DNA of 64,000 nucleotides from Lytechinus pictus (lineage: Eukaryota). The stretch covers positions 29,886,001 to 29,950,000 of the forward strand of contig NC_087251.1 in the NCBI RefSeq assembly GCF_037042905.1, read 5' to 3'. Below are positions 15,765 through 40,816 of this stretch, piece by piece; position 1 is the first letter of the stretch, and each line of letters begins with the position of its first letter. The notes beneath the pieces are model-generated. The model was given only the letters and a program-made list of their open reading frames with translations, made no database searches and was not told the origin of the DNA. Position numbers and translations under genes: made by a program.

Positions 15765-17659
15765 TTAAATATGGGGCCGCGGAACTGGGGGGGGGTGTGC
15801 TTGTGAGTTGTGAGGCTTCATCGATCCCCCCACTTTTCTCCAAAACTGTACAAAAATGTAAAAATGACATGATCTGATCATGATTTTTTTGCTCAGCCCC
15901 CTCACTTTTAAACCTGTTCTGTGGCGCCTGTAAATGAATGATTGTAATATTTTGTAAGAATTCTCTGTATGCTTATCATTTTTCTTTGTGTTTTTGTTTC
16001 CCAATTCTATGTTAGTGTACTGCTCCAGTGGTAAAAATGCAAGGTAAGAATTGGACCAGTCAGGGGGGGGGGTTCACAAAGAGTTGAGTGTTAATTATTA
16101 AAATCATTCTTGTCAAAAAGCAATGTTTTTCAATACACAGTCTTACACAGTATTGTGTGTCACCTGAGCATGATCTGACCGATGTGGTGATGCATTGTAT
16201 TCCAAACATAACTGGGAATTTAAGCATAATTTTGAGTCACACTTTTAAAATGTCATCCTGGAATTGAATTCTGTTCACAATTAGCAGGAAATGGCTGAAT
16301 ACTGAAGTAAGAATGTATGAATAAGTACTAAGTTTAGTTATAATGAAATACAATACGTTACATCAGCCCAATATGACTGCAACAGTGGCCACAATATGGG
16401 AGGGGGGCATCTGGGCAGCTTCACCCCTCTCCCCCTAACTTTTTTCAGTACCCTTGCACAAAAACATGAAAATGACCATCAAACTTGTGATTTTAAGCAT
16501 GTTCAGCCCCCCCCCTTTAATACTGTTCCGCGGCCCCTGTACAATATAGAATATCCTGGCATTGAAACTTCAATTTTTATAAGTAGACACTATTGAGTCC
16601 TCAGTATATCACCCCTCATGATGTAAAAAAAGGTAGGTTTTAACAGGTAAAATGCAGCCAATGTAATTTTCACCAAACTTTCCACAGAGTTAAAAATAAT
16701 ATAGTTTCATATGAACAATTTTTTTCTGTGGGACTTTGAAGCTTGCCATTATTAGATTGCTGAAAAATTGATTAAATCAACAGACGGATGCATCAGATAA
16801 ACCTCAAGATATCAACAAATGAGTGTTTGAAATTCCCATTCTGTCTAAACCTCTGTACATTTCATTAAAATTAACTTTGCAATTGTGTAATTTATGTCAT
16901 TTTATACCTTCTTGCAAATTTCCTCTGCAAACTGCAACCGAGATCTTAAGTGATCTGTAATACCCCTACTAGTGGGGTGTCTGGAAAACGAAGACCGAAG
17001 ACCGAAGACCGGGGACTCATATCACACTCGTGTGAAAGCGTTTGTAGTTCACGCCCGAAGTGTGTACAAAGCAGTGCAAAGTGTGTACAAAACACGTGCG
17101 CGGGTTAGAATGGACTTTGGACCTTGCCCCGACACATGTTCTCCCATTGACAATGCACGGGTCCCCGGTCTTCGATCTTCGTTTTCCAAACCCGTTGTTG
17201 GGTGTCTGGAAAACGAAGACCGAAGACCGGGGATCGCATTCGTTTAGCTAAGATACCACTTATAAATGTCATTATGAAGGCCTCTATTATTCAGCTCAAA
17301 TTCAAGAATATTCTGATCTAGAATACATTAATGTCATTAATTGGCTGATAATGAAGTCATGTTAATTGCTTGTGTCAATAATTAGTATAGTTAGACCAGT
17401 TGAAGCGGGATAGGTCTCCCAGTTTACACCACTATTCCACTGAGACAAGTAACAAACTCCAGTAATCAATCAGACCAGTTTCAAATTTCCAGTTAAAGGT
17501 TAACTCTAGACCAGTAATTTCAGACCAGTTTAATTCTTAACTGGTCCAGTAAAGTGAACTCGACCAGTTAGACCAGAATGCCGTTTTTCCATTTTCCAGA
17601 ATTACATTCTGTGAACTGGTTTTTCCTTCTTAATTGGCTGACATTGATTTGCAATTTTA

Positions 17660-20600
17660 CTACCATTGACATTACGCATGTCCCCGGTCTTCGTTTTCCA
17701 AACCTGTTGTTGGGTGTCTGGAAAACGAAGACAGAAGACCGGGGATTGCGTATTCGTCTAGCTAAGATAGGCCTATGATATTCAGCTCCAGTTTAAGAAT
17801 ATTCTGATCTTGGATACGTCATCAGCTATGATTGGCTGCGGATAAGTTATGGTTATTTGTGTGAATATCGTTATCAGCTAGGGCATGATATTAAGGATAA
17901 CGTACATATTTCACCCACGGAATTCAGCCATTGCAATTCTGAAAACTGTCATAAAACTGAAAACTTGCATACAATACACCTCATACTGCGCAATCACGTA
18001 CAAGCAGACTCAACTCAACTGGCGTTTGCAACTATTTTACTACCATTGACATTACGCATGTCCCCGGTCTTCGGTCTTCGTTTTCCAAACCTGTTGTTGG
18101 GTGTCTGGAAAACGAAGACAGAAGACCGGGGATTGCGTATTCGTCTAGCTAAGATAGGCCTATAATATTCAGCTCCAGTTTAAGAATATTCTGATCTTGG
18201 ATACGTCATCAGCTATGATTGGCTGCGGACAAGTTATGGTTATTTGTGTGAATATCGTTATCAGTTAGGGCATGATATTAACGATAACGTACATATTTCA
18301 CCCACGGAATTCAGCCATTGCAATTCTGAAAACTGTCATAAAACTGAAAACTTGCATACAATACACTTCATACTGCGCAATCAGTGGCGTACCGTGGGTC
18401 ACGGCATTGGGGGGGCACCAACAAAAAATTTGAGTCACTTAATGAGCACGCGAAGCGCGCTTAGTTGCCAGGTATAAAGACCTATAAGTAATAGTGACAT
18501 TTTAAGGACAGTGCCATTAAAGCGGATATGTATCTCACTGATCATATAATGCGAGCGCGAAGCGCGAGCTGAAATTTTTTGATATTCAGAACTAAAAAGG
18601 GACATTATAAGCAAATTTTTGTAATCATGATACATACCTGTCTTGCTAAACAAACAGTATATACATGTCTCACCATAATCATCTAATGCGAGTGCCAAGC
18701 TTGCGTATGCTGATTTTGTTAGAATTACATTTAAACACATGAGGCACTTTTTGTAGTCGTTGTAATCATGATTATCATACGCATCTCACTAATCAAATAT
18801 TGCGAGCGCGAGCTGAAAATTTAGGAAATTCAGACCTTAAGAGAAGCATTCTAAGATTTGTTTGTTGGAATTCACGAAGACCATACATATTTCACTAACC
18901 AAATGATGCGAGCGCGAAGCGCGAGCTGAAATTTTTGTATATTTTGACCCTGAACAGGGCTATTTTAAGGGCTATTTTTTTAAGGAATCCATTAAGAGTA
19001 CACATATCTCACCATAGTCATCTAATGCGAGTGCCAAGTGCATGCTGATGTTACTAGAATTACATCTAAACACATGAAGCACTTTTTGTAGTCATTGTAA
19101 TCATGATTATTATACGCATCTCACTAATCAAATATTGCGAGCGCGAAGCGCGAGCTGGAAATTTACTTAATTCAGAACTGAAGAGGGGAATTCTAAGGCT
19201 TGTTTGTAGGAATTCACAAAGACCATGCGTATTTCGCTAACCAAATGATGCGAGCGCGAAGCGCAAGCTGAAAATGTTTGATTTTCAGATAAAAAAAAGT
19301 TACATTTTAAGGACTGATTTTAGGAATTCATGAAGAGCAGACATATCTCAGCTATCCAGTAATGCGATCGTAAGCACGGACAGGAAGTGTTTTATATTAA
19401 GTCCTTAAAATGGGGCAACCACTTTAAGTAGTCATGAAAAAGAAGCATATGTAACTACATAAAACAATAATAATTCGAAGTGCGAGGAAATATATTTGGT
19501 GTATATTGACTTAATAACGGGAGGTTTTAGTACATCGGGATTATATATCTCGTTAAACAGACGATGCGAGCGCCAGGAACAATGAAGACATAGGCCCTGA
19601 GCAAATTATGTTTCATAAAGATATGATTTTTTTAAAGTAATATAACATAACATAATCATAATATAACATTATAATGAACAATAATTTTTTATTTCCCACT
19701 ACGTTTCTTGCCCTTTCTCCCTCTTTTTCTCCTTTTCCCCGTTTTTTTTTTTTTTTTTGCCAGCCGATTGGGGGGGGGCACGTGCCCCCCCATGCCCCCC
19801 CGTAGTTACGCCACTGTGCGCAATCACGTACAAGCAGACTCAACTCAACTGGCGTTTGCAACTATTTTATACTACCATTGACATTACGCATGTCCCCGGT
19901 CTTCGGTCTTCGTTTTCCAAACCTGTTGTTGGGTGTCTGGAAAACGAAGACAGAAGACCGGGGATTGCGTATTCGTCTAGCTAAGAAAGGCCTATAATAT
20001 TCAGCACCAGTTCAAGAATATTCTGATCTTGGATACGTCATCAGCTATGATTGGCTGCGGATAAGTTATGGTTATTTGTGTGAATATCGTTATCAGCTAG
20101 GGCATGATATTAAAGATAGCGTACATATTTCACCCATGGAATTCAGCCATTGCAATTCTGAAAACTGTTATAAAGCTGAAAACTTGCATACAATACACCT
20201 CATACTGCGCAATTACGTAAAGCAGAATCAACTCAACTGGCGTTTGCAACTATTTTATACTACCATTGACATAACGCATGTCCCCGGTCTTCGGTCTTCG
20301 TTTTCCAAACCTGTTGTTGGGTGTCTGGAAAACGAAGACAGAAGACCGGGGATTGCGTATTCGTCTAGCTAAGATAGGCCTATAATATTCAGCACCAGTT
20401 CAAGAATATTCTGATCTTGGATACGTCATCAGCTATGATTGGCTGCGGATAAGTTATGGTTATTTGTGTGAATATCGTTATCAGCTAGGGCATGATATTA
20501 AGGATAACGTACATATTTCACCCACGGAATTCAGCCATTGCAATTCTGAAAACTGTCATAAAACTGAAAACTTGCATACAATACACCTCATACTGCGCAA

Positions 20601-21658
20601 TCACGTACAAGCAGACTCAACTCAACTGGCGTTTGCAACTATTTTACTACCATTGACATTACGCATGTCCCCGGTCTTCGGTCTTCGTTTTCCAAACCTG
20701 TTGTTGGGTGTCTGGAAAACGAAGACAGAAGACCGGGGATTGCGTATTCGTCTAGCTAAGATAGGCCTATAATATTCAGCACCAGTACAAGGATATTCCG
20801 ATCTTGGATACGTCATCAGCTATGATTGGCTGCGGATAAGTTATGGTTATTTGTGTGAATATCGTTATCAGCTAGGGCATGATTAATAAGGATTAGACAA
20901 TTATAATGTACATATTTCACCCACGGAATTCAGCCATTGCAATTCTGAAAACTGTCATAAAACTGAAAACGTGCATACAATACACCCCATACTGCGGAAT
21001 CACGTACAAGCAGACTCACCTCAACTGGCGTTTACAACTATTTTACTACCATTGACATTACGCATGTCCCCGGTCTTCGGTCTTCGTTTTCCAAACCTGT
21101 TGTTGGGTGTCTGGAAAACGAAGACAGAAGACCGGGGATTGCGTATTCGTCTAGCTAAGATAGGCCTATAATATTCAGCTCCAGTTTAAGAATATTCTGA
21201 TCTTGGATACGTCATCAGCTATGATTGGCTGCGGATAAGTTATGGTTATTTGTGTGAATATCGTTATCAGCTAGGGCATGATATTAAGGATAACGTACAT
21301 ATTTCACCCACGGAATTCAGCCATTGCAATTCCAAAAACTGTCATAAAACTGAAAACTTGCATACAATACACCTCATACTGCGCAATCACGTACAGGCAG
21401 ACTCAATTCAACTGGCGTTTGCAACTATTTTACTACCATTGACATAACGCATGTCCCCGGTCTTCGGTCTTCGTTTTCCAAACCTGTTGTTGGGTGTCTG
21501 GAAAACGAAGACAGAAGACCGGGGATCGCGTCAATTCGTCTAGCTATAAGATAGGCCTATAATATTCAGCACCAGTTCAAGAATATTCTGATCTTGGATA
21601 CGTCATCAGCTATATGATTGGCTGCCGAAAAGTTATGGTTATTTGTGTGAATATCGTT
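17660..21658 (+). repeat. Left-arm tandem array of the 387-bp unit (about 6.5 units, one interrupted)
   Basis: Hairpin junctions near 17681, 18061, 19892, 20281, 20668, 21067 and 21453; spacing 387 bp where uninterrupted. Confidence 0.95.
18382..19816. mobile_element. hAT-like non-autonomous element inserted in a 387-bp unit
   Basis: TIR cagtggcgta / tacgccactg; perfect 8-bp TSD tgcgcaat (18374-18381, 19817-19824); internal gcgagcgcgaagcgcgagctgaaa repeats. Confidence 0.9.
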
Positions 21659-21787
21659 CACATCCAGATGACGAGATACGATATCTCGCCAAGTCGACTT
21701 ATAAAAGGTCATGTCGACATGGCGAGATTATGTCGACATGGCATAATTAAGTTTCTCGCCAAGTCGATGGCAATTAAAACATGTAAA

Positions 21788-22365
21788 AGGGATGGTCCTG
21801 GCTGAAAATATTTATATCTTAATACATAGAGTAGAATTCACTGAGCTATGTGCCGAAAATTTCATCAATCGGATAACAAGTAAACAGTTATTGAAGTTTA
21901 AAGTTTAGCAATATATTGTTAAAACAGTCGTCGTGAATATTCATTAGGTGGGCTGATGATGTCACATCTCCACTCTCCGTTTCCCTATGTTATTATATAT
22001 AATCATAATTTTTACATTATTTCATATTTGTGCTAATAATATGTCTCCCTTATAATGAAATAAGTTGCAGCAATGAATATTTAATGCACTAAATCAGTTG
22101 CCAATCCAATTTTTCTACTTTTTTGTTCTTGGATGAAAACATTTGAATAAACCTAATTTCATATAATAAAATACAAAAGAACAAGTGGAGATGTGACATC
22201 ATCAGCCAACCTAATGAATATTAATGACGACTGTATTCACAAAATATTGCTAAATTTTAAAATTCAATAACTTTGTTATCCGATTTTGATGAAATTTTCG
22301 GTATTTTGCTCAGTGAATTTTACTCTATTCATTAAGCTATACATGCTTTCAGCCCGCCCATCCCT
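21788..22365. mobile_element. Kolobok-like MITE family B copy 1
   Basis: agggatgg...ccatccct|ttaa, palindromic body; related to 33317-33914. Confidence 0.7.
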
Positions 22366-23032
22366 TTAAAGGCTCCGTATAAAATAAACCTAATTGTAAT
22401 AGAAAGCAATGTCATCGACCTAAGACAGGTGGCAAGCGTGCCTTTGTAGAATGCTGTTGCCGGTATGCGATGTTTTCTATACGGTCGGCGCACATGAAAC
22501 ACAAGTGTGTCGCTTGTATACTACTTTGCGGTTAAACCCGAGACGTTCCCACGCGTACATTTCGAGAGCAACAATTCAGTACGCGTTTGGAAGAAAATTA
22601 CCCTGTTTACACGTGCATCGGCTTTTGGTTCAGAACCAAAAGCCGATGCAGAATTGGCTTTTGGTCTATCTTGCACCGCAGAATCGGCTTACCCTCTTTG
22701 GGAATCGACGGGCGGACGACATTTGGATCTCTTAGTCTCGCCTTCACCTCTTGCGGGCGAGACAAACAATGAGAAAGAGAAGGAAGAAAGGAGAAAGGAA
22801 AAGGGCCAATAATTGGAATGATCAAACAAATCTAATCATCCTGAAATAGGGCCTACTAATAAACAAGTGAGAAAGGGGTTAGAAATAAAGAGATGGCAAA
22901 GTGGAACGGAAATTTTAGGCGGGAAAGGGAAGGAAGAGAGGCCAAAATAAACGGGATGCGAAAATGCTAACATGAAATCGGAATAGAAAACAGAAAAAAC
23001 AAGAGGGGAAAAGAAAGAAATTAAGAACACAA

Positions 23033-24344
23033 CAGCTAGTGGCGTAGCTACGGGGGGGGGGGGGGGGGCTGGGAGCCCCCCCCCCCCCTGAGATTTGGTG
23101 TGCCCCCATCAGGTGCCCCGCCTGGAAAAAAAGTGGTAGAGCAAAAAAAAAAGGGAGAAAGAAGAAAAGAAAAAGAAGAAGAAAGACAGAAGAAAAAAGA
23201 AGAGGAAAATTAGAGGAGGGAGACGAATGAATGAAATAATGTGAGGGGAAGACTTGCCAAAAAAGAAACAATTCTTTCATGTTACTATAAAAAATATTTG
23301 CTTGCGCTTCGCGCCAGAATTGACTGTTCGATGAGATTCATATCTTGCTCAATAGGCTGATATGGAGCAAGTTTTGAAGTCATTATACAAAACATTATTA
23401 GCTCGGACATCGAGCTTTCAATATTTTTTCATTTACAAATTTAAGTGCTCTGTAAAATGTCCGTTTTATTGTCTACATATCAGCATTTTTTTTTAAAGCT
23501 CACGCTGCGTGGTCACATTGTTTGATTTGCCAAGTTCCTATTGTCTACATGTATTCCATAATGTTCCATTAAAGAAATATATTCAGAATGCCCAGATTCT
23601 AGGTCTAAATCTAAAACATGCGCGATAGCATGCATGTTCTTTATTTAAAATCTACTTGAATTATCCAGTTTCACATCAGAATATAAATAATTGTCTGCTC
23701 GCGCTTTACGATAGCATAATTAATGATACCCAATTAACTATATCCTATTTATGATTTACAAAATATGAATAGTGTCCCGCTTTTAGGTCTAAAATCTCTT
23801 TTTTTTTCCTCTCGCGCTTCGCGCTCGCATCCATTGTTTCGTTACATACCTATCCCATTTATTGATACAAAAAGTGCTTAGAATTACCATTCTTTTAGGT
23901 CGGAATGTCAAAAAAATTGCATTATTGAAATATATACCATCTTCGTGGGTACCTATATAAGTGCACTTAACAGGTCCCTTTTCGATAATGCTAGAACAGT
24001 TAATAAAAATTTCTGCTCGCGCTTGGCGTTCGCAGTAACCATCTAGTTACATACGAATCTTGATCGGGATCACACATAACATTGCCCAGAATATTACATG
24101 AAAGTAACAAATAAAAAAAATCGCTCGCGCTTCGCGCTCGCACTTTTTATAATGCTTATGAGATTATTTCATGTTTATGCTGTTTTATAAGAATATAACG
24201 AAGAAGTGACTGATCGGGAAAAATATAGGTGAAGATAATTTCGGGCCCTTGTGACAAGTACACACCGGATAAAAATGGTGCCCCCCTGACTCAAAGCAAG
24301 GACCCCCAGTGCCCCCCAGGAAAAAAATCCTAGCTACGCTACTG
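23033..24344. mobile_element. hAT-like non-autonomous element
   Basis: 8-bp TSD gaacacaa (23025-23032, 24345-24352); ends cag(ctag)tggcgtagcta / tagctacgctactg. Confidence 0.8.
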
Positions 24345-24554
24345 GAACACAACCGGGATACCGAGGTTGAAAATAAAGAACGGTAAGAAAGACTCGGCTG
24401 GTGTGTGGGTATGACGTGTATATAATAGCCTATTTTGATTTCACGCAACTAGCCGCAATCATAAGGGGACACAAATTAGTGAACTTCAAGATATCGCCCA
24501 ATTACTGCCGATGTTCCTATCCAGGGGACAGACCGCTCTTCACACCATGATATG

Positions 24555-24893
24555 CAGCGGCGTAACAGGGGTCGGTGGCCAGGGGCGGGGGGGGGGGGGG
24601 GGGCGGGCAAGAGCCAAATATTTCCTGGTCACATTATATGGTATAAACAGGCGTAATGAGCCGACACTATTTTGAGAAGGCCAGATATTGTGCATCGGAC
24701 AGAATTTATCTTTTATTTAAAAAAATGCGAGCAAGCAAAAATTTTGACCTTTTTAATACAAAAATCCAATTTTGTGATAGATTTTGACATGATGTCCAGA
24801 GAATGATATTTCACTCTTCTCTCTTTGGATTCCTTTTTTGTCGTCTGTACGCGCACTGTGAACAGGATTCTTTGCGGCTGTAGTAACGTGAAG

Positions 24894-24927
<34 letters not shown>

Positions 24928-26166
24928 AGGGGTGGAGTATACCACATGTGCTAAAAAAAGCTGTTTTATATAAGTCCCGAGCGAAGCGAGGGATAAAAAA
25001 ATCACCTTTTCATGAGAATCTAACTTTGAGCTATTTTTTGACATTATATTTAGTAAATAAAATCATATCCTACACTTTTCCTCTGCTTTTTTTGTGTTTT
25101 TGTTTGTACAACTTTTTGGGCCCATGGCCCAACACTTCCATACGCAGTGATGTGCGGTTGGGGTCCGGGGCGGAGCCCCCTGAAAACTTCTTGATATCAA
25201 AGCCATTTAAACCTCGCAGATTGCCGCTATTTTAATCAAATCGCATTCTACATAGACTATAGCTTTTACACAACACATTTATTCAACCCAGTTGCGTAAT
25301 GAACCAAATATTTATAGGGCAAAGCATACCAACGTGGAAAAAAAGTCGCTAGCGTGCAAAGCGAGCTGGAAAAAAATTGCCTATTGAATTTAAATTCTAA
25401 TTATGTGATATATTTTCCATTATATTCAGCAAATAACACATTTCATTGTCCATTCATTTCATTATACTTTGTCTCCTATAATTTCTTTTTTTCCCTCTTG
25501 GGTGTGGAACACCCCCCCCCCGCCTGTATGCCATTGATTGAACATTGTTGAACGGGGGTAGGTATATAGCCATTTAAAGGTTATAAATGCTGAAGAGCCC
25601 ATACTGCGTGGGGTCTGGGACAAAGGCCCGGTAGCTTATTTGCATAAAGTCTAGCAAGCTTATAACACAATGTATGCAGACCATCTTTCTTCCCGCTCTT
25701 TTCAATCATCGGCAGCCCGGTCGTGTTATTATTTTTTTCTTGTCCCTTTTTCCCTTGTATTTTTTTCCAATTTAGCTTTTGATTAATTACGTTCTACCTT
25801 CGTTTCCCGCTCTTCATACCATTTTGTTATATTTTAAATTATTTCCCACCGTGCTATTGCATTACATAGGCCTATTTCGGAATGATATGTTCTTTCTCAA
25901 ATGTTCTTCTTTCGTATATTTTCCCGCTTTCCTTTCTTTTCCATTAAAAAAAAAAGTTTTTTTCTTCGTTTTCTTTTCAATTTTCCCTTTCCTTTTCCTC
26001 CTTTCCTTTTCCCATTTCCTTCCCCAGTTCCCTTTCTTTCTTTCTCCCTCCCTTTTTTCTTTTTCCCGTTTTTCTTAATTACGCCACTGATGATAATGAC
26101 GGGGAATTTTCTGGCTCTCGTCCCCCCCCCCCCCTCCCCTGGCCACCGAACGCTGCTACGCCCCTG
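24555..26166. mobile_element. Older hAT-like element with an internal second pair of ends
   Basis: cagcggcgtaacaggggtcggtggccagggg / cccctggccaccgaacgctgctacgcccctg; degenerate TSD atgatatg/attctatg. Confidence 0.6.
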
Positions 26167-26363
26167 ATTCTATGTAAGCATCTATTAATTGCATGCATTT
26201 TTTCAGTTTGAAATTTTTTTTTATTTAAAAACGATATGACAATTTCATGGAATATTGTATCCACGTATATCGGTTGTTTTAAGGTCTGTTTATCAGCCAG
26301 CATGAAGAAAACGAAGTACAATTGCACGGAAACGTGTCCATAGCACGCTATATGTGGTAATTA

Positions 26364-27978
26364 CCCAGGACCAAAATCCAGTTGAAACCAATTAGAGCAA
26401 AACCAATTGAAACCAGTTGGCCAACTGGTTTCAATAGGGGAATTGGAACAACTGGAACCAATTGAAACCAGTTGCCAACTGGTTCCAGTTAAAACCAATT
26501 GGGCAACTGGTTTCAATTGGTTCCAGTTCCAATTTCCCTATTAAAACCAGTTGAATCCAATTGGAGGTAACTGGTTTCAATTGGTTCCAGTTGAAACCAA
26601 TTGGAGGCAACTGGTTTCAACTGGAACCAGTTGAAACTAACTGGTTTCCAACTGGATCCAATTGGAACTTCCAGTTGGAATGACTTAATTAGTTACAAAT
26701 TAATTAGAATTTGCACCAACTATTGCTCATGCCAACAAAGAAGCAGTGCTATATGTCTACAATACCATTGTAAAGTGCATTGATAAAATAGACTTTCATA
26801 ATGTATATATTTACATGAAAGATCTTCAAATATATGTATTTGCATTTGATGTAATTTGGTAACAGTTAGTGGTGTACTAATTATCTTATAATCTGTTTTA
26901 ATTATAATCTATAACATTTATGAACATGGTTTTCACTGCTAAGCATTCTAAACACTTATCTGAAACAAGTATGGTACTTGAAATAGAAAAGAATTAAATA
27001 GATACATTTTAAATGATGATGAATCACATAAAAACATTAATCTGTGCACACTGGCAGATAATATGCAAATTAACTGGTTTCAATTGGAACCAGTTGGGTA
27101 ACTGGAAAATTTCCAATTGGAAACCAATTGGAAGTCATTTCCAGTTACCCAACTGGATCCAGTTAGGATTTCCAGTTACCCAACTGGTTCCAGTTAGGAT
27201 TTCCAGTTACCCAACTGGTTCCAGTTAGGATTTCCAGTTACCCAACTGGTTCCAGTTAGAAATCATTTCCAGTTGGAAGTCATTTCCAGTTACCCAACTG
27301 GTTCCAGTTAGTATTTCCAGTTACCCAACTGGTTCCAGTTAGGATTTCCAGTGACCCAACTGGTTCCAGTTAGGATTTCCAGTTACCCAACTGGTTCCAG
27401 TTAGGATTTCCAGTTACCCAACTGGTTCCAGTTAGAAATCATTTCCAGTTGGAAGTCATTTCCAGTTACCCAACTGGTTCCAGTTAGGATTTCCAGTTAC
27501 CCAACTGGTTCCAGTTAGGATTTCCAGTTACCCAACTGGATCCAGTTAGGATTTCCAGTTACTCAACTGGTTCCAGTTAGAAATCATTTCCAGTTGGAAG
27601 TCATTTCCAGTTACCCAACTGGTACCAGTTAGGATTTCCAGTTACCCAACTGGTTCCAGTTAGAAATCATTTCCAGTTGGAAGTCATTTCCAGTTACCCA
27701 ACTGGTTCCAGTTAGGATTCCCAGTTACCCATACTGGTTCCAGTTAGAAATCATTTCCAGTTGGAAGTCATTTCCAGTTACCCAACTGGTTCCAGTTAGG
27801 ATTTCCAGTTGCCCAACGGGTTCCAGTTAGGATTTCCAGTTGCCCAACTGGTTTCAATTGGTTTCAACTGGAAATTTTTATATTCCAGTTAAAACCAATT
27901 GAAACCAGTTGAAACCAATTGAAACCAATTGAAACCAGTTGGAAATCCAACTGGTTTCAATTGGATTTTGGTCCTGGG
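26364..27978. mobile_element. EnSpm/CACTA-like non-autonomous element with an internal 31-bp minisatellite
   Basis: TIR cccaggaccaaaatcca / tggattttggtcctggg; 2-bp TSD TA; dense ccagtt/aactgg subterminal repeats; unit ccagttacccaactggttccagttaggattt arrayed at ~27140-27850. Confidence 0.8.
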
Positions 27979-29459
27979 TAGCTTGACGAATGAAATCCCC
28001 GGTCTTCTGTCTTCGTTTTCCAGACACCCAACAACAGGTTTGGAAAACGAAGACCGAAGACCGGGGACATGCGTAATGTCAATGGTAGTAAAATAGTTGC
28101 AAACGCCAGTTGAGTTGAGTCTGCTTGTACGTGATTGCGCAGTATGAGGTGTATTGTATGCAAGTTTTCAGTTTTATGACAGTTTTCAGAATTGCAATGG
28201 CTGAATTCCGTGGGTGAAATATGTACGTTATCCTTAATATCATGCCCTAGCTGATAACGATATTCACACAAATAACCATAACTTATCCGCAGCCAATCAT
28301 AGCTGATGACGTATCCAAGATCAGAATATTCTTGAACTGGTGCTGAATATTATAGGCCTATCTTAGCTAGACGAATACGCAATCCCCGGTCTTCTGTCTT
28401 CGTTTTCCAGACACCCAACAACAGGTTTGGAAAACGAAGACCGAAGACCGGGGACATGCGTAATGTCAATGGTAGTAAAATAGTTGCAAACGCCAGTTGA
28501 GTTGAGTCTGCTTGTACGTGATTGCGCAGTATGAGGTGTATTGTATGCAAGTTTTCAGTTTTATGACAGTTTTCAGAATTGCAATGGCTGAATTCCGTGG
28601 GTGAAATATGTACGTTATCCTTAATATCATGCCCTAGCTGATAACGATATTCACACAAATAACCATAACTTATCCGCAGCCAATCATAGCTGATGACGTA
28701 TCCAAGATCAGAATATTCTTAAACTGGAGCTGAATATTATAGGCCTATCTTAGCTAGACGAATACGCAATCCCCGGTCTTCTGTCTTCGTTTTCCAGACA
28801 CCCAACAACAGGTTTGGAAAACGAAGACCGAAGACCGGGGACATGCGTAATGTCAATGGTAACGGTATAAAATAGTTGCAAAAGCGGGGTTGAGTTAGTC
28901 TACAACTGTAGACCCACATCTGCAGTGTGTGTATCACAGCTGATTCAAGGAGTCTGCATAGCAGACTAGGTCTACTAGAGCCTGCAGATCTGGGTCTACA
29001 ACATGTTTGACCAATGTACACGAAACGTGTACACAAGGCGGAGCTTGCTGAAACCCTCCGTTGCCAGTAGATACCATAATTGACAGCAGATTTGTGGAAG
29101 TAGGGGCAAGAGAGGGATTAGGATCCAGCTGTTCTGACCATTTCTTATCTTGTGGAATTTAAACAAATAGGGTATACCCCTCTTTCACTTTTGGGGCTTG
29201 CTACATACACATAGGATCCATATACATGCATAGATACATATATGAATGTACTTGAGTAGTCAGGAGATGGAATGGTTTGGATGATAGGTCCATGATGATA
29301 CCAAAGTCTGTAATAGCTCATGGTTATAATAGCATAGGGCATGTTTTGAAACATTTTTTGTTACAGCAAGGAACGTGTATGGAACTAATACAGTATATGA
29401 ATGTGTAGAAGATGCCCTGATCACCCCCCGGGTCTTTTATAAGTGACATGGAATAAACC

Positions 29460-29810
29460 TTGTCTTTTTCTCTCTTTCTCTTCCTTTCTTTCCTTTTTTT
29501 CTTTTTTCCTCTTTTCATTCTTCTTGATTTTTTTTTTTTTCCTCTTTTCTTCTCTTTTGTTTTCTTTCTTTTTTCTCTCTTCTTTTTCTCTTTATATCTT
29601 CCTTTCTTTCCTTTCCTTTCTTCCTTTTTCTTTCTTTCATTCATTCATTTTTTCCTTCCTTTTTTTCATTTTTATCTCTTTCTCTCTCTCTCTCTTTCTT
29701 TCTTTCATTCTTTCCCTTCCTCCTCCTTTCTTATTTTTTCTAATTTTATTTTCATTTTTATTTCATTTGCTCTCTCATTCTTCTTCCTTTCCTCCAATGT
29801 CCTGTTTTTT
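29460..29810. repeat. CT-rich low-complexity tract
   Basis: Read directly; source of spurious K/R- and F/S-rich ORFs. Confidence 0.85.
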
Positions 29811-29877
29811 TAAATGTTATTTATCATCATACGTGTATCTTTATCATTTCTACAATATAATGGAACTGATTGATTAA

Positions 29878-30470
29878 AGGACAAGTCCACCCCAACAAAA
29901 CTTGATTTGAATAAAAAGAGAAAAATTCAGCAATCATAACACTGAAAATTTCATCAAAATCGGATGTAAAATAAGAAAGTTATGACATTTAAAAGTTTCG
30001 CTTCATTTCACAAAACAGTTTGATATGCACATCTCGGTCGGTATGCAAATGAGGGAACTGATGACATCACTCACTCACTATTTCTTTTGTATTTTATTAT
30101 ATGAAATGTGAAATATTTTTATTTTCTTGTCATTGTCATATGGTGAAATGAAGTTTCATTCCTCCCTGAACACGTTCAACATTTTATGCTTCAGACAAAG
30201 AGGTCCTAATCATCAAATTCGTAAAAATTGAAATATTGTGTAATTCAAACAATAAAAAACAAAAGAAATATTGAGTGAGTGACATCATCGACTCTCTCAT
30301 TTGGATGTAACTGGCTCGTTCATATAACTATTTTGTTAAAAATAAGCGAAACTTGGAAATGTCATAACTTTCTTATTTTACATCCGATTTTGATGAAATT
30401 TTCAGCCTTGTGCTTGTCTGATCTTTCTCTATTGATTCAAATCAACATTTTTCTGAGGTAGACTTGACCT
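29878..30470. mobile_element. Kolobok-like MITE family A copy 3 (opposite orientation)
   Basis: ttaa|aggacaagtccacccc ... gacttgacct|ttaa. Confidence 0.8.
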
Positions 30471-31000
30471 TTAATGAACCAAACCGTTTTCTAAAGTACA
30501 AAATAAGAAATTATATGAAATTTTAGCGTGCAACATTAACCTTATGTACTACTCACATAAGATATGACTTGTTCACCGGCCTTTCTTATACCCTCTTTAT
30601 TTCTTCCCCTTCCTTTCCTTCTTGTTATCTTTTCTTTCTCTTTCTCTTTGTCTCTTTTCTTCTTTTCCGTTCCTTCTTCTTACATCTTAATAAATTAAGT
30701 TTTGTTTGCCCTGCCATTAGCATTTAGTTTCACATTTTCTTTATAATTCTATTCTTTCGACTTCAATGTTTCCTTCTTCATTAAGCCTATTGTGAATGTT
30801 TTTCAAAGCCGTGTACATAATCGTAAAAATGACCATATGACTGTGATTTTTTGCGTCATCAGCCCCCCCCCCTACTTTGAAAACCATTTCCACGGCCCCT
30901 GAAATATACACTGTTCATCATCACACCGGACACCTCGGGCCCACCCTGGATCCGCCTATGAAATGCATATTTTTTTTAGAAGAAGTAGCATACACTACAG

Positions 31001-31292
31001 CAGTGGCGTACCTAGGATTTTCCACAGGAGGGGAAAATTTGCCCGCCAAAAAATTTGACAAGCAAAAAAAAAAGAAAGAAAAGGTCCTCAATCGAAAATA
31101 AAGGTTTTCGTACCAGAAAAAATATTGACATGCAAAAAAAAAAAGGCCTTCAAGTTTGTCAGGGGGGGGGGGGGGGGCAATAAAGGTCTTTCAAGCTCGT
31201 CAGGGGGGGGGGCAGGGATATGTCTTTTGTATGGGTTGTGGCTCGTCAGGGGGGGGGCAGATTGCCCCCCCCCCCCCGTAGGTACGCTAGTG
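31001..31292. mobile_element. Small hAT-like MITE
   Basis: cagtggcgtaccta / taggtacgctagtg; 8-bp TSD cactacag (30993-31000, 31293-31300). Confidence 0.8.
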
Positions 31293-31646
31293 CACTACAG
31301 CCAATATAACTGGTAAGCACATATTTAACAGACAACAACAAAAAATTACCTACTTTCCACAATTCAAATCCAACAAATTAATATTTTGAAACAAAATAAT
31401 TATCCTTCAAAGCAATGGGGCATAGTACATGTAAGCAGTTTGCACTAATGAGTAAAGCATCAAGGCATATAGCTCCCGGGCATACCAATATGCAACTTTC
31501 ACATCTTTGGCATCGACATTGCATGTGTTGACAAAGCTAATTGTTTTCATATTCAGTTCATTCAGCAGGATTGGCTGATTTAAATCACGTTGATTTTAAT
31601 CGCGATTTAAATCACTGTGATCATTTTTTTCAAATCATTGATTTAA

Positions 31647-32404
31647 AGGTCATATCCACCCCAGAAAAAAAGAGTTTAATTGAATAAACATAGAGAAAAA
31701 TCAAACAAGAATAACGCTGGAAACTACATCAAAATCGGATGTAAAATAGTTTATGATAACATTTTTAAGTTTCGCTTATTTTTCACAAAACAGATGGGTG
31801 TTTTATAAAGCTGTTCGTAAGTTAAGAGCGACTTTAAGAACGATTTGAGATCCTTTCTTGTGGTAAATTGTATATACATTGGCGATGGTTTATCGCGTAA
31901 GAAGTGTTCACCAGTCGTTCTTTAAGTCGCTCTTAACTTGTGAACAGCTTTATGAAACGGCCCCCAGTTATAATGACAATTCAGTGATATGAAAATTAGA
32001 GAGTCAATGATGTCACTCACTCACTATTGCTTTTGCATTTTTACTGTTTGAATTATACAACATTTCAATTTTTACGAATTTAACAAATAGGACCCTCTTG
32101 TTTGAACTACTAAATGTTAAAACAATGTAATCCCACATGGTCAGGGAGGAATGATTTTTTTTCATAAAAATATTTCATATTTCACATAATAAAATACAAC
32201 AAAAAAATGAGTGATGTCATCGCCATAATTTGCATACCGACAAGGATTTGCATATAACCACGGTTTTGTGAAATTAAGCAAAAATTTTAATCGTCATTAC
32301 TTTCTTCTTTTAGATCGGATTTTGATGAAATTTTCAGCGTTATGCTTGTCTGATTTTCTCTTACTATTCAAAGCAGCTTTTTGTTGGGGTGCATGACTTT
32401 TCCT
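31647..32404. mobile_element. Kolobok-like MITE family A copy 4, carrying a ~170-bp palindromic MITE (~31796-31966)
   Basis: ttaa|agg...cct|ttaa; inner arms aagctgttcgtaagttaagagcgac / gtcgctcttaacttgtgaacagctt. Confidence 0.75.
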
Positions 32405-33316
32405 TTAAATCATTTCCATTGAAACATGTACAAATTATTTGGGATTTTTTATTGTTTGTGGCAGTTTTACTTTTTAAATTAAAAAGAAAAAGATTTTACC
32501 AACTTTATATCATGAGAACAGGAATAAATCCTTCATATCTACTCAGAACAATTGAAATCAAATCAATGAAATCAAGTCAATCTTGCAAAACCAAAGATGA
32601 ACATGTAGCCTACATTATATGCGACCCCTACTCAACTTGTATGTATGAGTAGACTTTGTTAATAGTAAAACAAATTTCTTGTTTCTTTATGTCAAAATTC
32701 AAAAGTGTTTTAGAGGGCAGTTTTCAAGAAAGTAAAGGAACTCTGAACTTATTAGGCTGAATCTCAACATGATAGATTTTTGCCAGGATGGGTTATAACC
32801 ATGGATCCTATACTAGAAAAAGCCTGTTCAGACATTCTGAGTAGGATTGTGCTTCATTCAGCCAGTTCACTGAAAAAGGTTCAGTAATTAAGTACATGTA
32901 CATTTATTTTAAAATATGTATGAATGTTCTTGGCAAAGGGCACCAACATGACTAAATCATAACAACTATACATTTTAGTGCCCTTTGCCAAAATGATTTA
33001 TGTTTGTACATTTTTAAGTGAATATTTTGAATTGAGTACAATAAAAGTAAAAATCGGCAACGTCCCTGCTTACCCAATACACCGATATTTTAACATTTCT
33101 ATTCCTTTACATGTTCCTGTATTCAAATAAATAGGCCGACACAGTAGTATAAGGGAACCCGTTTTCTTATTTTAGCAAAACTGCTGCTAAAATACTAGTT
33201 TTCCAGTTTATTGTAAACGAAATCATTTAAATCAACTTGCAAGTTTGTCAAAACTTTGCAAGCCAATGCTTTGAAACAGTCAAATAGTTCCAACTATGGC
33301 TCAAAGAAGAACTTAA

Positions 33317-33914
33317 AGGAATTGTCCAGGCTGGAGAAATTATGATACATGTATCAATAAATAAAGTAAAATTCACAGAGTAAAATACTGAAATTTGATC
33401 AAAATCGGATAACAAATAACAAAGTTATTGAATTTTAAAGATTTCTTTTCGATTATTCCGGTAAAACATTTCTAGGCATGTCTTCATGAATATCCGTTAG
33501 TTGGGCTTATGATGGCATATCTCCACTTGTTCTTTTAATTATGATTATGTGAAATTAGGTTTATTAAAAAGAAATTTACCAAGAACTAAAAACAATTGAA
33601 TTGGCAACTAATTAAGTACATTAGTTATTTATTGCCGCAACTTATTTCATCATAATGGAGACACATTATTTACACATGTATAAAAAAAAATGAAACAATT
33701 ATGATTTCATGTTATAAGAAAAAGGAAAGAGGGGATGTGACATCATCAACCCACCAAATGAACATTCATGACGATGTAAATATAACTGTTTTCACAAAAT
33801 ACTGATAAACTTTAAAATACAATAACTTTGTTATTTGTCATCCAATTTTGGTGAAATTTTCATCATTTTACTCTATTTATTTAGATCTGAATATTTTCAG
33901 CCCGGTCCATTCCT
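33317..33914. mobile_element. Kolobok-like MITE family B copy 2
   Basis: ttaa|aggaat...attcct|ttaa; body homologous to 21788-22365. Confidence 0.7.
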
Positions 33915-34899
33915 TTAAGGTTGATACAAACAAAAATAAATGCAGTCGGTCAAAGCTTTGAAAGCCAATGCTTTGAAAAGAACAACTTGGGGTTGAAACA
34001 AACAAAAGATAAATGCAGTTTTCTTTAACATGTATGATCTTCAATCCTTGACCTGAAAATAAAATTTAAAAAATATATCTCTTTGGAGAACTTGAATCTC
34101 TGAGTCATGGAATTCTTCCAAATAAACTGATCCTCATTAAATACCAAGAGCTTTGAAAATGAGCACCAACTTTGCATGTTTGCAGCATTAGCTGTACCAA
34201 GACAGTTATGTACTTTAGACACAGCAGAAAATGTCAGCTTCTTTATGGCTTTAATATTTTCTATAAATTATATTTTGACTGGATTTGATTATGAAATAGT
34301 TAAGAATAATTTTGGTGGTGAAATGCATAATTTTAAAATTGATGTCAGTGTGAAGGGTTATATTTTGGGTGTTTGCACTTTGTTAAAAAAAATTTGTTAG
34401 AAAAAATCAGATTGAAATTAAAAAAAATCTGATTTAAATCAAATAGATCCGATTTAGGTTTATATAAAAAAATTGCCAACATTTTCATTCAGCATACTTT
34501 TGAGTTTGAAAGTACCTGATTATCACATACATTATGGCTGGCATAAAAACACTTTTAATACAAAGGTGAACGAATGTTGCTGGGCATGACAACTTACACA
34601 AGGCTAATTAAGGCTAATTAATATCAAACTGAGCTAACATAACAGTAAAACAGGTTGAATACAGTAGCATGGAGAAGTGACTACAAATACAAGGTCCAAT
34701 CAAGAAACTATGGTTAGAAGTTAATTCCAAACAGGAACAAAATAAAACATAGCTATCCTGTTTGATTAAAAGTATGATAGTTTACAAACTTACAATCGTG
34801 AAATTTAAGATTTTCATTTTGTAAACTATCATATTTGATATTTAAGTTCTGAATTTTATGAGAATGGTGTTTTTGAGTTTGATATTTTGGGTTTTAAGT

Positions 34900-35661
34900 A
34901 CCATATGATAAAAGTTTTAAGGAATACTGGTTTAATTTACAAACTTAAGCTTAGTTTGCTTCATAAAAATCTGATAACTTTATACCATTCCATGATTTTC
35001 TCTTATTTAAAATATTGCAATACCAATGTATCCTCATATAAATTGGACTCAATATTCAAAAGAAATGTTTAAGAATAATTACCTATTCTAATAGCACCAT
35101 CCGCACCTTTATTTAATAAGCGAGAACTCACAATATTTATCTATAAGTTCAAGAAGAGGTAGTTGTTACCCATGTAGTTTTCAGATCTTTTTCAATGCAA
35201 TAATCAAGTTCATAACCATAATACCCGTTCTTCCAATAAATTTCATTTATGGTCTATTAGGTCTATAGTCACGAAGCTGAGTTATGTAGGTCCCAAACGA
35301 TGGAATGAGATTCCCCAAATAATAACTAATTCACAATTTATATATTCTTTTAGAAAACAGTATTCAAATTTTCTAGTAAATTATTATTAATTCTCACACA
35401 TGATATCAATGCATACTTGTAACGTATCTACCCCCCTCAACTCGTGTTTTTTTTCCTCCTTTTTATATACACTATTAACTATAATGATATGATATTCTGT
35501 TTTGTATTAATGTTGTTTTGTTTTTACTATGTTTTGGCGAGCCTCACATGTTTCTTATTACCTTCATGGGAAGCCACGCAATTTATTTTTATTATCTAAT
35601 CACATTATTTGATGTTTCCTTGTATTTTTATCCTATTTGCGAAATAAAGATTGAATTGAAT
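34900..35661 (+). pseudogene. 5'-truncated L2/CR1-group LINE: ORF2 C-terminus, 3' UTR and tail
   Basis: GLIYKLK...LITLYHSMIFSYLKYCN, HNHNTRSS and WNEIP motifs; ends aataaagattgaattgaa. Confidence 0.75.
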
Positions 35662-38600
35662 AGAATATATATAGAGAGCTATGATAAAACCATCCACTAT
35701 TTTGGGCCATGGAGCAAGGTTTTGGCCATACATGCAGCTGCTCAGTGGAATGTCATACGTAAACACTGTCTGATGGCCTGAGCGAGGGTATTACATAATA
35801 ACCCTGCTCATGGCTCTGTGGTTGAAGTAGGGGATTATCTATACTCCTCAGTGGTCATAAAATTTGGTTTACAGACAGATGAAGTTATCCAATGAAAGCT
35901 CTCTGAAATTTTGGGTGGGTGGGACTTATTTTGACCGTGGGAACAAGATTTCCAAAGAAGAAGCAGACTCTGAAATGGCTCGCTTCGCTCGCCCTTTCAG
36001 GCTGGTTTGCTTCGCAAACCAGCTGCAGATCCCACTTCACGAGCCATTCAGAGTCTGCATAGCAGACTAGGGTTGAGTGGACTCTGCTTGTACGTGATTG
36101 CGCAGTATGAGGTGTATTGTATGCAAGTTTTCAGTTTTATGACAGTTTTCAGAATTGCAATGGCTGAATTCCGTGGGTGAAATATGTACGTTATCCTTAA
36201 TATCATGCCCTAGCTGATAACGATATTCACACAAATAACCATAACTTATCCGCAGCCAATCATAGCTGATGACGTATCCAAGATCAGAATATTCTTAAAC
36301 TGGAGCTGAATATTATAGGCCTATCTTAGCTAGACGAATACGCAATCCCCGGTCTTCTGTCTTCGTTTTCCAGACACCCAACAACAGGTTTGGAAAACGA
36401 AGACCGAAGACCGGGGACATGCGTAATGTCAATGGTAGTATAAAATAGTTGCAAACGCCAGTTGAGTTGAGTCTGCTTGTACGTGATTGCGCAGTATGAA
36501 GTGTATTGTATGCAAGTTTTCAGTTTTATGACAGTTTTCAGAATTGCAATGGCTGAATTCCGTGGGTGAAATATGTACGTTATCCTTAATATCATGCCCT
36601 AGCTGATAACGATATTCACACAAATAACCATAACTTATCCGCAGCCAATCATAGCTGATGACGTATCCAAGATCAGAAAATTCTTAAACTGGAGCTGAAT
36701 ATTATAGGCCTATCTTAGCTAGACGAATACGCAATCCCCGGTCTTCTGTCTTCGTTTTCCAGACACCCAACAACAGGTTTGGAAAACGAAGACCGAAGAC
36801 CGGGGACATGCGTAATGTCAATGGTAGTAAAATAGTTGCAAACACCAGTTGAGTTGAGTCTGCTTGTACGTGATTGCGCAGTATGAGGTGTACGTATGCA
36901 AGTTTTCAGTTTTATGACAGTTTTCAGAATTGCAATGGCTGAATTCCGTGGGTGAAATATGTACGTTATCCTTAATATCATGCCCTAGCTGATAACGATA
37001 TTCACACAAATAACCATAACTTATCCGCAGCCAATCATAGCTGATGACGTATCCAAGATCAGAATATTCTTAAACTGGAGCTGAATATCATAGGCCCATC
37101 TTAGCTAGACGAATACGCAATCCCCGGTCTTCTGTCTTCGTTTTCCAGACACCCAACAACAGGTTTGGAAAACGAAGACCGAAGACCGGGGACATGCGTA
37201 ATGTCAATGGTAACGGTATAAAATAGTTGCAAACGCCAGTTGAGTTGACTCTGCTTGTACGTGATTGCGCAGTATGAGGTGTATTGTATGCAAGTTTTCA
37301 GTTTTATGACAGTTTTCAGAATTGCAATGGCTGAATTCCGTGGGTGAAATATGTACGTTATCCTTAATATCATGCCCTAGCTCATAACGATATTCACACA
37401 GATAACCATAACTTATCCGCAGCCAATCATAGCTGATGACGTATCCAAGATCAGAATATTCTTAAACTGGAGCTGAATATCATAGGCCCATCTTAGCTAG
37501 ACGAATACGCAATCCCCGGTCTTCTGTCTTCGTTTTCCAGACACCCAACAACAGGTTTGGAAAACGAAGACCGAAGACCGGGGACATGCGTAATAATGTC
37601 AATGGTAGTAAAATAGTTGCAAACGCCAGTTGAGTTGAGTCTGCTTGTACGTGATTGCGCAGTATGAGGTGTATTGTACGCAAGTTTTCAGTTTTATGAC
37701 AGTTTTCAGAATTGCAATGGCTGAATTCCGTGGGTGAAATATGTACGTTATCCTTAATATCATGCCCTAGCTGATAACGATATTCACACAAATAACCATA
37801 ACTTATCCGCAGCCAATCATAGCTGATGACGTATCCAAGATCAGAATATTCTTGAACTGGTGCTGAATATTATAGGCCTATCTTAGCTAGACGAATACTC
37901 AATCCCCGGTCTTCTGTCTTCGTTTTCCAGACACCCAACAACAGGTTTGGAAAACGAAGACCGAAGACCGGGGACAAGCGTAATGTCAATGGTAGTATAC
38001 AATAGTTGCAAACGCCAGTTGATCCTGCTTGTACGTGATTGCGCAGTATGAGGTGTATTGTATGCAAGTTTTTAGTTTTATGACAGTTTTCAGAATTGCA
38101 ATGGCTGAATTCCGTGGGTGAAATATGTACGTTATCCTTAATATCATGCCCTAGCTGATAACGATATTCACACAAATAACCATAACTTATCCGCAGCCAA
38201 TCATAGCTGATGACGTATCCAAGATCAGAATATTCTTGAACTGGTGCTGAATATTATAGGCCTATTTTAGCTAGACGAATACGCAATCCCCGGTCTTCTG
38301 TCTTCGTTTTCCAGACACCCAACAACAGGTTTGGAAAACGAAGACCGAAGACCGGGGACATGCGTAATGTTAATGGTAGTAAAATAGTTGCAAACGCCAG
38401 TTGAGTTGAGTCTGCTTGTACGTGATTGCGCAGTATGAGGTGTATTGTATGCAAGTTTTCAGTTTTATGACAGTTTTCAGAATTGCAATGGCTGAATTCC
38501 GTGGGTGAAATATGTACGTTATCCTTAATATCATGCTCTAGCTGATAACGAAATTCACACAAATAACCATAACTTATCCGCAGCCAATCATAGCTGATGA

Positions 38601-40732
38601 CGTATCCAAGATCAGAATATTCTTAAACTGGTGCTGAATATTATAGGCCTATCTTAGCTAGACGAATTGGCGCGATCCCCGGTCTTCGGTCTTCGTTTTC
38701 CAGACACCCAACAACAGGTTTGGAAAACGAAGACCGAAGACCGGGGACATGCGTTATGTCAATGGTAGTAAAATTGCAAATTAATGTCAGCCAATTAAGA
38801 AGGAAAAATCAGTTCACAGAATGTAATTCTGGAAAATGGAAAAACGGCATACTGGTCTAACTGGTCGAGTCCACTTTACTGGACCAGTTAAGAATTAAAT
38901 TGGTCTGAAATTACTGCATGGTCTAGAGTTAACCTTTAACTGGAAATTTGAAACTGGTCTGATTGATTACTGGAGTTTGTTACTTGTCTCAGTGGAATAG
39001 TGGTGTAAAATGGGAGACCTATCCCGCTTCAACTGGTCTAACTATACTATTTATTGACACAAGCAATTAACATGACTTCATTATCAGCCAATTAGTGACA
39101 TTAATGTATTCTAGATCAGAATATTCTTGAATTTGAGCTGAATAATAGAGGCCTTCATAATTACATTTATAAGTGGTATCTTAGCTAAACGAATGCGATC
39201 CCCGGTCTTCGGTCTTCGTTTTCCAGACACCCAACAACGGGTTTGGAAAACGAAGATCGAAGACCGGGGACCCGTGCATTGTCAATGGGAGAACATGTGT
39301 CGGGGCAAGGTCCAAAGTCCATTCTAACCCGCGCACGTGTTTTGTACACACTTTGCACTGCTTTGTACACACTGGGCGTGAACTACAAACACTTTCACAC
39401 GAGTGTGATATGAGTCCCCGGTCTTCGGTCTTCGGTCTTCGTTTTCCAGACACCCCCTACTAGTGTACAAGAAACCCCCCCACAAAAAAAAAGAAAAAAG
39501 AAACCACCAAAATATGCAGTCACGATGTGTACAAGCATAACTGAGACGTCTTTATTCTGACGATGATATTACAGCAATATTTCTTATATATTTCACTCAA
39601 TAAGTTTTCAAATTCCAAACATTTAAATACTCCAATATTTAATACTACAGTTAATCTCATTGGGGTCCAGGGGAAAGTGTCATGAAAACTTGTTTAAGAT
39701 GGCTATTTGATATTACAAATTATGAACAACATATTTCCATGTCAAGACCAAAGGCCATTTGAGGTCAATAAACTTTGGGTTTTACTCACATGTATTTAAA
39801 TATTTATTTTTCTTCATTTATTTTCTAATTTTGCGTGGCTTGCATCAAGTATCAGTCATTATCAGGTTATTTAATCATGGTCCGAGATTTAAAGGAAAAT
39901 TGATATTTTGTCAGTTTAAAAAATCATGGGTCTCATCCATTTATTTTCTTATACCTTTAAGCTTATACATGTTCAATATCTGTCAAATATGTGTATTTAC
40001 ATAGATCTTTTCATATTCATTACTCTCATTCCAGTGTTCATTCACATCGATATTAGATTTTTTAAGATTCCAATATTTTAGGGCAAGACCATGCCCTGAG
40101 ATGGGCATCAAGGTCAGCCAACATGGGAATTCACTGCCATGGCCATCGATGACTGGATTCATTTAAGCTCTGTTAGTCTTAGCTAAAGCCTATAAAAGAA
40201 AAAAATGGTGTGTGTGAACTCTTCCATTTTTTTTACAAAATGAGGAACGATTATCACCAGATTGTAGTATAACAGCTAATAATCTTACAGCTTACGATAC
40301 ATTATTAGCCTACATCATCAGGCCCGTAGCCAGGGTTTCAATTAGGGGGTTTGATGTCCTTTCTTTCTTTGCTGAAAATTTGACAAGCAAAACAGTCATT
40401 GATCAAAATCGGTTGGCATTACATCCTGTATTTTTTTTTTTTGCTTTTGAAAAATTTAGGGGTTCAATTGAACCCCCAACCCCCCTCCCCCCTTCCTAGC
40501 TACGGGCCTGTTCATGAATGCAGAAAATTTACAGATCTTCAAAATGCAAGGCAGTACAATAGAAATCCATTCCAAGTCAATTAAAACATGTAATCCCTTA
40601 AATTTGTATCCACATCTAGATAAATTATGACTTTCATATTCAATCATGATGGCACTAGAGAAATCGATGGGAATAAGCATTTGGGCCGGTATTGGTACTT
40701 ATTTGCGTGTATTTCATGTATGCTATCTTCAG

Positions 40733-40816
40733 GGCCAGGAGGACACAAGATCAACCTGACCAAAGTGCTGCCAGTACTCACACAGCTGTTCAATACTCCC
40801 AGATTACCGGTAGTAG
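40733..40816 (+). CDS. Plus-strand unknown gene, exon (ARRTQDQPDQSAASTHTAVQYSQITGS)
   Basis: tcttcag acceptor, AG|gtaaat donor, 84 bp, phase 2-2, open. Confidence 0.65.

Follow-up and report, generated by a model that had tools for sequence, protein, structure and literature searches.

Introduction

Sea urchin TU elements are foldback transposons with outer arms of tandem repeats, and their repeat units and total length are much shorter than those of the element described here. Literature searches on TU elements and on sea urchin satellite and inverted repeats returned no papers. A terminal G is a feature of MULE ends, a PHD finger is one of the Rehavkus transposase, and P-type elements have CA ends and 7–8-bp duplications.

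The Drosophila virilis foldback Tetris is described as having long inverted arms, composed of a flanking domain together with tandem repeats of ~220 bp, around a non-coding middle, with 8–10-bp duplications and no known transposase (PMC4079207). According to the same description, a 37-bp stretch (~80%) is common to the repeats and the flanking domain (PMC4079207). Rehavkus of Tribolium is reported to combine TIRs with variable, satellite-type subterminal tandem repeats that expanded in a species-specific manner, and its arms sometimes exceed 11 kb (PMC12581902). The accounts of Muta1, an Aedes MULE and type-2 foldback, give a terminal motif that starts with GGG and precedes short subterminal repeats, 8–9-bp duplications and non-autonomous derivatives with mixed internal DNA (PMC5225508, PMC5499845). 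In Galileo, a member of the P superfamily, secondary transposase-binding sites are reported to lie within the long TIRs' tandem repeats (PMC3688188).

Extent and ends of the element

Self-comparison of the window (the whole 64,000-nucleotide stretch of Lytechinus pictus DNA analysed here, to which all coordinates refer) placed a foldback element with matching, G-starting termini at 16975–39455, a length of 22,481 bp. It is flanked at left and right by CCCCTACTAGTG, the same 12 letters at both ends. Two symmetric readings of the boundaries are available: GGG..CCC ends (16975–39455) leave a 10-bp target duplication and GGGG..CCCC ends (16974–39456) an 8-bp one, and a 9-bp duplication is obtained only if the ends are asymmetric. 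A duplication of 8–12 bp was found in 267 of 2,000,000 random position pairs, a chance probability of 1.3e-4. The element is a single insertion event bounded by its target duplication, a point on which we have little doubt. It has the inverted tandem-repeat arms, the outer target duplication and the mostly non-coding middle of a structural foldback. An initial annotation had described a 22.5-kb inverted-arm element with matching termini and a flanking duplication, and this description is confirmed; of its 8–10 bp for the duplication, 10 and 8 bp stand, and its ~9 bp does not, unless the ends are asymmetric. Ends of the P/Galileo or hAT kind, which start with CA or YAG, were ruled out by the GGG start. 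A contig break at 17200, considered as a marker of the terminus, was dropped because the window's own sequence accounts for it.

Features of the element (coordinates, strand, description)
16965–16974, +, target duplication, left copy, in the 10-bp reading (16966–16973 in the 8-bp reading)
16975–17199, +, left terminal module (module 0): terminus, three 7-bp subrepeats, body and inward-facing worn end motif
17200–17711, +, left module 1, a longer, apparently diverged unit, 502/512 against the right copy
17712–18381, +, left 387-bp array, outer part (self-comparison)
19817–21657, +, left 387-bp array, inner part, 4.7 copies (Tandem Repeats Finder)
26349–26363, −, right arm, innermost module-1-like remnant beyond the 1.6-kb TA insertion; short, with moderate support
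27979–28895, −, right 387-bp array, inner part, 2.3 copies (Tandem Repeats Finder)
36070–38709, −, right 387-bp array, outer part, about 7 copies (Tandem Repeats Finder)
38710–39232, −, right module 1 (arm alignment)
39233–39455, −, right terminal module (module 0) (arm alignment)
39456–39465, +, target duplication, right copy, in the 10-bp reading

Composition of the arms

The self-comparison, which the initial annotation had proposed as a check for inverted arms, aligned 16968–18383 with 39464–38036 in inverted orientation at 96.9% identity. Tandem Repeats Finder located arrays of 387–389 bp at 19817–21658, 27979–28861 and 36072–38774. Arm lengths and unit counts were taken after removal of nested insertions. 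On this basis the left arm measures 3,240 bp and consists of two modules (225 and 512 bp), six full units of 387–399 bp and a remainder of 166 bp, and the right arm measures 4,294 bp and consists of modules of 223 and 523 bp, nine full units of 384–393 bp and a remainder of 51 bp. Together the arms amount to 7.5 kb, or 34% of the element. The counts of 6.4 units on the left and 9.1 on the right bear out the earlier estimate of about 6.5 and 9. The opposite orientation of the arrays in the two arms, also claimed earlier, was found as well; their continuity was not, as three insertions split the arms.

Module 0 is identical between the arms at 222 of 223 aligned bases (99.6%) and module 1 at 502 of 512 (2% divergence), and the full units have a mean identity of 97.6% (2.4% divergence). 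Aligned with the unit, module 1 scored 230 (best of 100 shuffles, 64) and module 0 scored 100 (best of 100 shuffles, 37). Judged by sequence likeness, both modules are diverged units bounded by the unit's own motif pair. The ~280-bp "terminal module" and ~400-bp "spacer" of the initial annotation are accordingly real as two outer parts, with sizes of 225 and ~515 bp and with both parts apparently diverged units. Unit variants are common to both arms and differ in order, so that the arms are no exact mirror images. Symmetry between the inner domains of the arms was absent, with 127 of 200 shuffles scoring as well.

Conservation of the end motif at module junctions

At each of the 20 module junctions, two copies of the terminus motif stand back to back, and the total, with the two true ends, is 40 copies. 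The outward-facing copies agree with the terminus as far as its GGG, and the inward-facing copies are without its last bases, as in the following example.

18061–18132, no strand assigned, 72-bp junction: inward-facing worn end and outward-facing intact end

In the 15 full units, 1 mutation event fell in the 72 junction columns versus 67 in the 315 body columns (p = 1.4e-5), and the counts were 1 versus 40 (p = 0.002) when the 3 noisiest units were dropped. A lost 7-bp subrepeat in the left module 1 is one more change, outside the 15-unit event count. The end motif is richer in CpG than the unit body, yet better kept. Two of the 20 junctions were folded, with z = −9.6 and −8.6. The unpaired 20-bp middle of the junction is invariant across units and an imperfect motif pair is kept in 14 of the 15, and these two observations make self-correction through a hairpin an unlikely cause of the conservation. 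The constraint is most simply explained by selection for protein binding, and the internal copies are quite likely transposase-binding sites that selection maintains; a locally low mutation rate may lie behind the conservation instead. For Muta1, more subterminal repeats are reported to give more binding and excision (PMC5499845).

Nested insertions and the centre

Six nested insertions, or passengers, occupy about 13.8 kb or 61% of the element (a total computed before small adjustments, of a few bases, to two passenger ends), and three of them sit within the arms. The other DNA of the centre makes up 5%. The term "giant", used in the initial annotation, holds for the length of 22,481 bp, most of which belongs to passengers that were left unmentioned there.

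Passengers and centre (coordinates, description; no strand assigned)
18382–19816, passenger of 1,435 bp, CAGTGGCGTA-ended, perfect 8-bp duplication; splits the left array
21658–26348, centre: about 1.2 kb of non-coding remnants and three worn passengers
21788–22365, centre passenger, palindromic, ~580 bp, flanks TAAA/TTAA
23033–24344, centre passenger, 1.3 kb, CAGTGGCG type, duplication 8/8; left end with a 4-bp insertion
24555–26166, centre passenger, 1.6 kb, CAGTGGCG type, duplication 6/8
26364–27978, passenger of 1,615 bp, CCCAGG-ended, TA duplication, own 31/83-bp tandem repeats; splits the right array
28896–36069, passenger of 7,174 bp, TAGTCT..AGACTA-ended, perfect 9-bp duplication, further small repeats within; splits the right array

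The arm passengers have perfect duplications (8/8, 9/9 and 2/2) and the centre passengers have worn ends, although this wear is judged on few bases and one centre passenger has a perfect 8-bp duplication. Within the centre, 65 bp match a repeat at 47711–47775 with 85% identity.

The 1,435-bp passenger is presumably hAT-like by its CAGTGGCGTA ends, and a relative of it, 81–85% identical, lies outside the element at 61383–62401. The passenger at 26364–27978, with its own palindromic and tandem repeats and near-perfect ends, is a foldback-like element inside the first. The 7.2-kb passenger may be composite; the same 21 bp occur at 28950–28970 and 36051–36071, and its first 73 bp resemble a mini-copy. 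In the unit that it hit (28881–28895 and 36070–36085), about five substitutions and one inserted base cluster at the target site, two of these changes being present in both copies of the duplication. A family of ~600-bp palindromic small repeats is represented at 9770–10383, 15174–15773, 29873–30474 and 31640–32410, with 74–86% identity between copies.

Coding capacity and searches for relatives

Low-complexity frames were removed before both Pfam scans. None of the 88 internal frames of 45 or more amino acids matched Pfam above the curated cut-off, and no transposase was thus found within the element in this comparison, which supports the earlier view of the element as non-autonomous. Four weak hits below the cut-off among these frames, one of them to THAP at E 0.035, were not accepted. 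The 150 frames outside the element gave no Pfam hit above the cut-off, and Rfam gave 0 matches. Scanning for the end motif gave 0 matches in viral contigs and 0 in prokaryote genomes; one metagenome match was isolated, without further likeness by eye, and was rejected. A 128-codon open frame in each unit was considered as a gene and attributed to chance, as its equal arose in 182 of 5,000 resampled units. It has 19 synonymous versus 40 non-synonymous changes, the lengths of 9 of the 15 units are divisible by 3, and no Pfam or Atlas hit was obtained for it.

Host context

The element lies probably within an intron of a host gene, as suggested by four candidate exons that join in frame for 135 codons.

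Candidate host exons (coordinates, strand, description)
12059–12167, +, AG/GT ends and frame
14300–14492, +, AG/GT ends and frame
16016–16043, +, before the element; AG/GT sites and phase
40733–40809, +, after the element; AG/GT sites, in phase with 16016–16043

The predicted intron around the element measures 24.7 kb, and 2.2 kb without the element. From such a position, the arms might form the multi-kb dsRNA or cruciforms that the initial annotation envisaged. No convincing homologue of the host gene was found, one candidate exon giving 4 weak, unrelated-looking hits. At the first candidate exon, 7 of the 8 listed differences from organism B (described below) are non-synonymous in the frame running through it, which counts against this exon; an RNA run of organism B placed 2 reads on it, which neither support nor oppose it.

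Elsewhere in the window, a PBZ zinc finger (Pfam PF10283, E 8e-13) marks the exons of a gene at 2802–4072 on the minus strand, and the exon next to them appears to resemble tyrosyl-DNA phosphodiesterase 1. At 58401–59748, flanked by AG and GT sites, 18.7 copies of a 72-bp repeat form a single open frame of 24-aa units, which is probably a repeat exon of the plus-strand gene. A 150-codon frame at 50673–51300 gave no Pfam hit and appears to resemble a LINE first-ORF remnant. Short diverged tandem arrays occur at 43871–44388 (about 194 bp), 48088–48529 (88 bp) and 57686–58021 (71 bp).

Probable empty sites in other individuals

Public runs listed for the window numbered 24, none with more than 0.14 of its words. 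Four public runs were aligned to 11900–18030, and the pieces shown are 24 of about 178,000. Coordinates of minus-strand records were read against the window, the only way in which the joint 18030-to-17654 of record 8 of run X1 fits. X1 (organism A) has 0 differences from the window over pieces of 720 and 458 bp and is very probably the same species. Runs X2 and X4 (organism B) differ from the window by 5–8%; in the flank, 11 letters and 4 gap letters differ in 204.

The initial annotation had also proposed a search for an empty-site allele. In record 6 of X1 (depth 2), 0 differences over 16517–16974 are followed by 16 unaligned letters, and in record 16 of X2 the match ends at 16974 with 206 further letters left over. 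Position 16974 is the last base of the duplication, and at least two contigs stop exactly there among the 24 pieces shown; the listed piece of X4 ends at 16910, short of the duplication end. The two contigs of X1 and X2 are probable empty sites, as judged from the position of the break. Among the pieces listed, no contig bridges flank and terminus, and the assembly is the sole source of the occupied allele. The 0 differences in 458 flank positions place an upper bound of 0.65% on divergence. The initial annotation had called the element young, which on these probable empty alleles is apt for the insertion at the site and not for its contents.

Point depth relative to a rough single-copy level, which does not give copy numbers, was 8 for module 0, 26 for module 1 and 77 for the unit in X1. 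The corresponding ratios, likewise not copy numbers, were 367, 4 and 7–239 in X2 and 1055, 11 and 166–582 in X4. These values suggest a small family in organism A, of which no second insertion site was seen, and strong amplification of a module-0 type in organism B. The seeding of satellite arrays by the element, proposed in the initial annotation, is hypothetical, the depth differences between species being rough. In X2 and X4, the part of module 0 at 17025–17199 has a depth between several hundred and a thousand times the single-copy level, and module 1 reaches 4–11 times; the depth of module 0 in organism B suggests a lineage-specific amplification of the terminal module. The ~600-bp palindromic repeat family reaches depths in the millions in the organism B runs.

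Origin of the element

We propose that the element is a non-autonomous Mutator-like foldback that recently moved whole, most of its passengers included (probability about 0.68). Taken separately, membership of the Mutator superfamily, argued from the end signatures, is probable, and movement together with most of the passengers is probable to a similar degree. A Mutator-like transposase supplied from elsewhere in the genome would bind the arrays, pair the outer ends and move the whole block, and more motif copies would help the pairing of ends that lie far apart. The inward-facing copies, without their last bases, would prevent single units from being excised as mini-elements. Unit number would change by unequal exchange within and between arms, as the shared variants in non-mirror order may indicate, and the element would have arrived recently as one ~22-kb unit with at least the centre passengers already aboard. 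The flank is identical to the probable empty allele, whereas the arms diverge by at least 2% and the centre passengers are worn, which favours a recent arrival of the whole composite.

Alternatively, a shorter foldback (~8.7 kb) may be an old insertion that acquired its passengers where it stands, and the empty allele would then be the product of a later precise excision or of a deletion between the duplications. Precise excision is reported to be common for Muta1, at about 90% (PMC5225508). With excision of this kind the empty allele is not necessarily ancestral and growth in place is possible; slippage between flanking repeats is in addition favoured by long inverted arms, and the duplications of the arm passengers are perfect. 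Such a history is nevertheless unlikely, since it requires six insertions, some of them worn, after the split from organism B, and both the perfect host duplication and the 99.6% identity of module 0 between arms stand against it. A different question is how the units began. Each lies between inverted end motifs and can fold back on itself (z −5.6), as expected of a small MITE that inserted twice at one site and expanded from the head-to-tail dimer into the arms, and small deletions are reported to be frequent at tandem DNA-transposon junctions (PMC5932611). An intact junction of this origin predicts 26 bp between motif cores, but all have 20 and a truncated inward end, which does not fit satellites formed from TE dimers by double insertion, as described in the same source (PMC5932611). 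The three module bodies share one junction, for which repeated duplication within an arm is simpler, and the window showed no free copy of a MITE. We consider this origin doubtful, although it is compatible with the main explanation.

Independent insertion of the two arms, or an inversion, around native host DNA is very improbable: one 8–10-bp word is present at both outer ends (1.3e-4 by chance) and neither arm has an inner duplication, even though the centre resembles ordinary repeat-rich host DNA in its 65-bp match, the inner ends are not symmetric, and the probable empty sites are judged from the position of the break. We give still less credence to an assembly artefact in the form of a fold-back chimera or a misjoined repeat. 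None of the contigs listed bridges flank and terminus, which would suit an artefact, but a chimera is expected to be an exact mirror without target duplication, and the arms differ in unit number, order and private mutations and in passengers that have their own duplications.

On a more tentative reading, the arms could be chains of half-disabled mini-elements, in which one intact outward and one crippled inward end per unit are kept by selection, providing 40 putative binding sites without self-excision of units. Internal outward ends might then become new termini and yield shorter derivatives, a still-active family would transport, in a single block and within a living population, 14 kb made up of other transposons and host-like DNA, and in sister species different modules would give rise to repeat families of their own. 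Provided that the element is polymorphic and moved whole, large foldbacks are vehicles for other elements and can lengthen an intron by over 20 kb at a stroke, and splicing, editing and rearrangement could be compared between carriers and non-carriers. The arms would also be a measurable case of satellite-like sequence kept for transposase-binding sites, with a motif about 15 times better kept than its surroundings.

Comparison with known elements

The likeness to Tetris lies in the arm architecture, the non-coding middle and the 8–10-bp duplications. Here, each junction has two opposed, near-perfect terminus copies, the units are of 387 bp and 61% of the element consists of passengers, unlike Tetris as described (PMC4079207); the arms of 3.2 and 4.3 kb compare with up to 1.7 kb reported for complete Tetris copies (PMC4079207). 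The combination of a TIR with a subterminal tandem array that characterizes Rehavkus is present here too, and its reported 9-bp duplication (PMC6446971) would be shared if the ends are asymmetric, against 8 or 10 bp in the symmetric readings. MULE duplications are given as 8–11 bp (PMC6446971), and the element has the corresponding 8- or 10-bp duplication together with TIRs of hundreds of base pairs with a terminal G. It is like Muta1 in its GGG-starting ends and mixed internal DNA; the 145-bp TIR of Muta1 is described with nine 12-bp repeats in one orientation (PMC5225508, PMC5499845), whereas here the whole end repeats every 387 bp and in both orientations. The putative binding sites in tandem repeats recall those of Galileo. 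The CA ends and 7–8-bp duplications of P-type elements, in contrast, do not fit the G-starting ends. Arrays with two opposed terminus copies at every junction were not found described in the literature searched. As far as its sequence allows it to be classified, the element cleanly exemplifies a transposon type already known, with Tetris and Rehavkus as published precedents, to which it would add strong constraint on the end motifs inside the arms, along with a probable insertion polymorphism.
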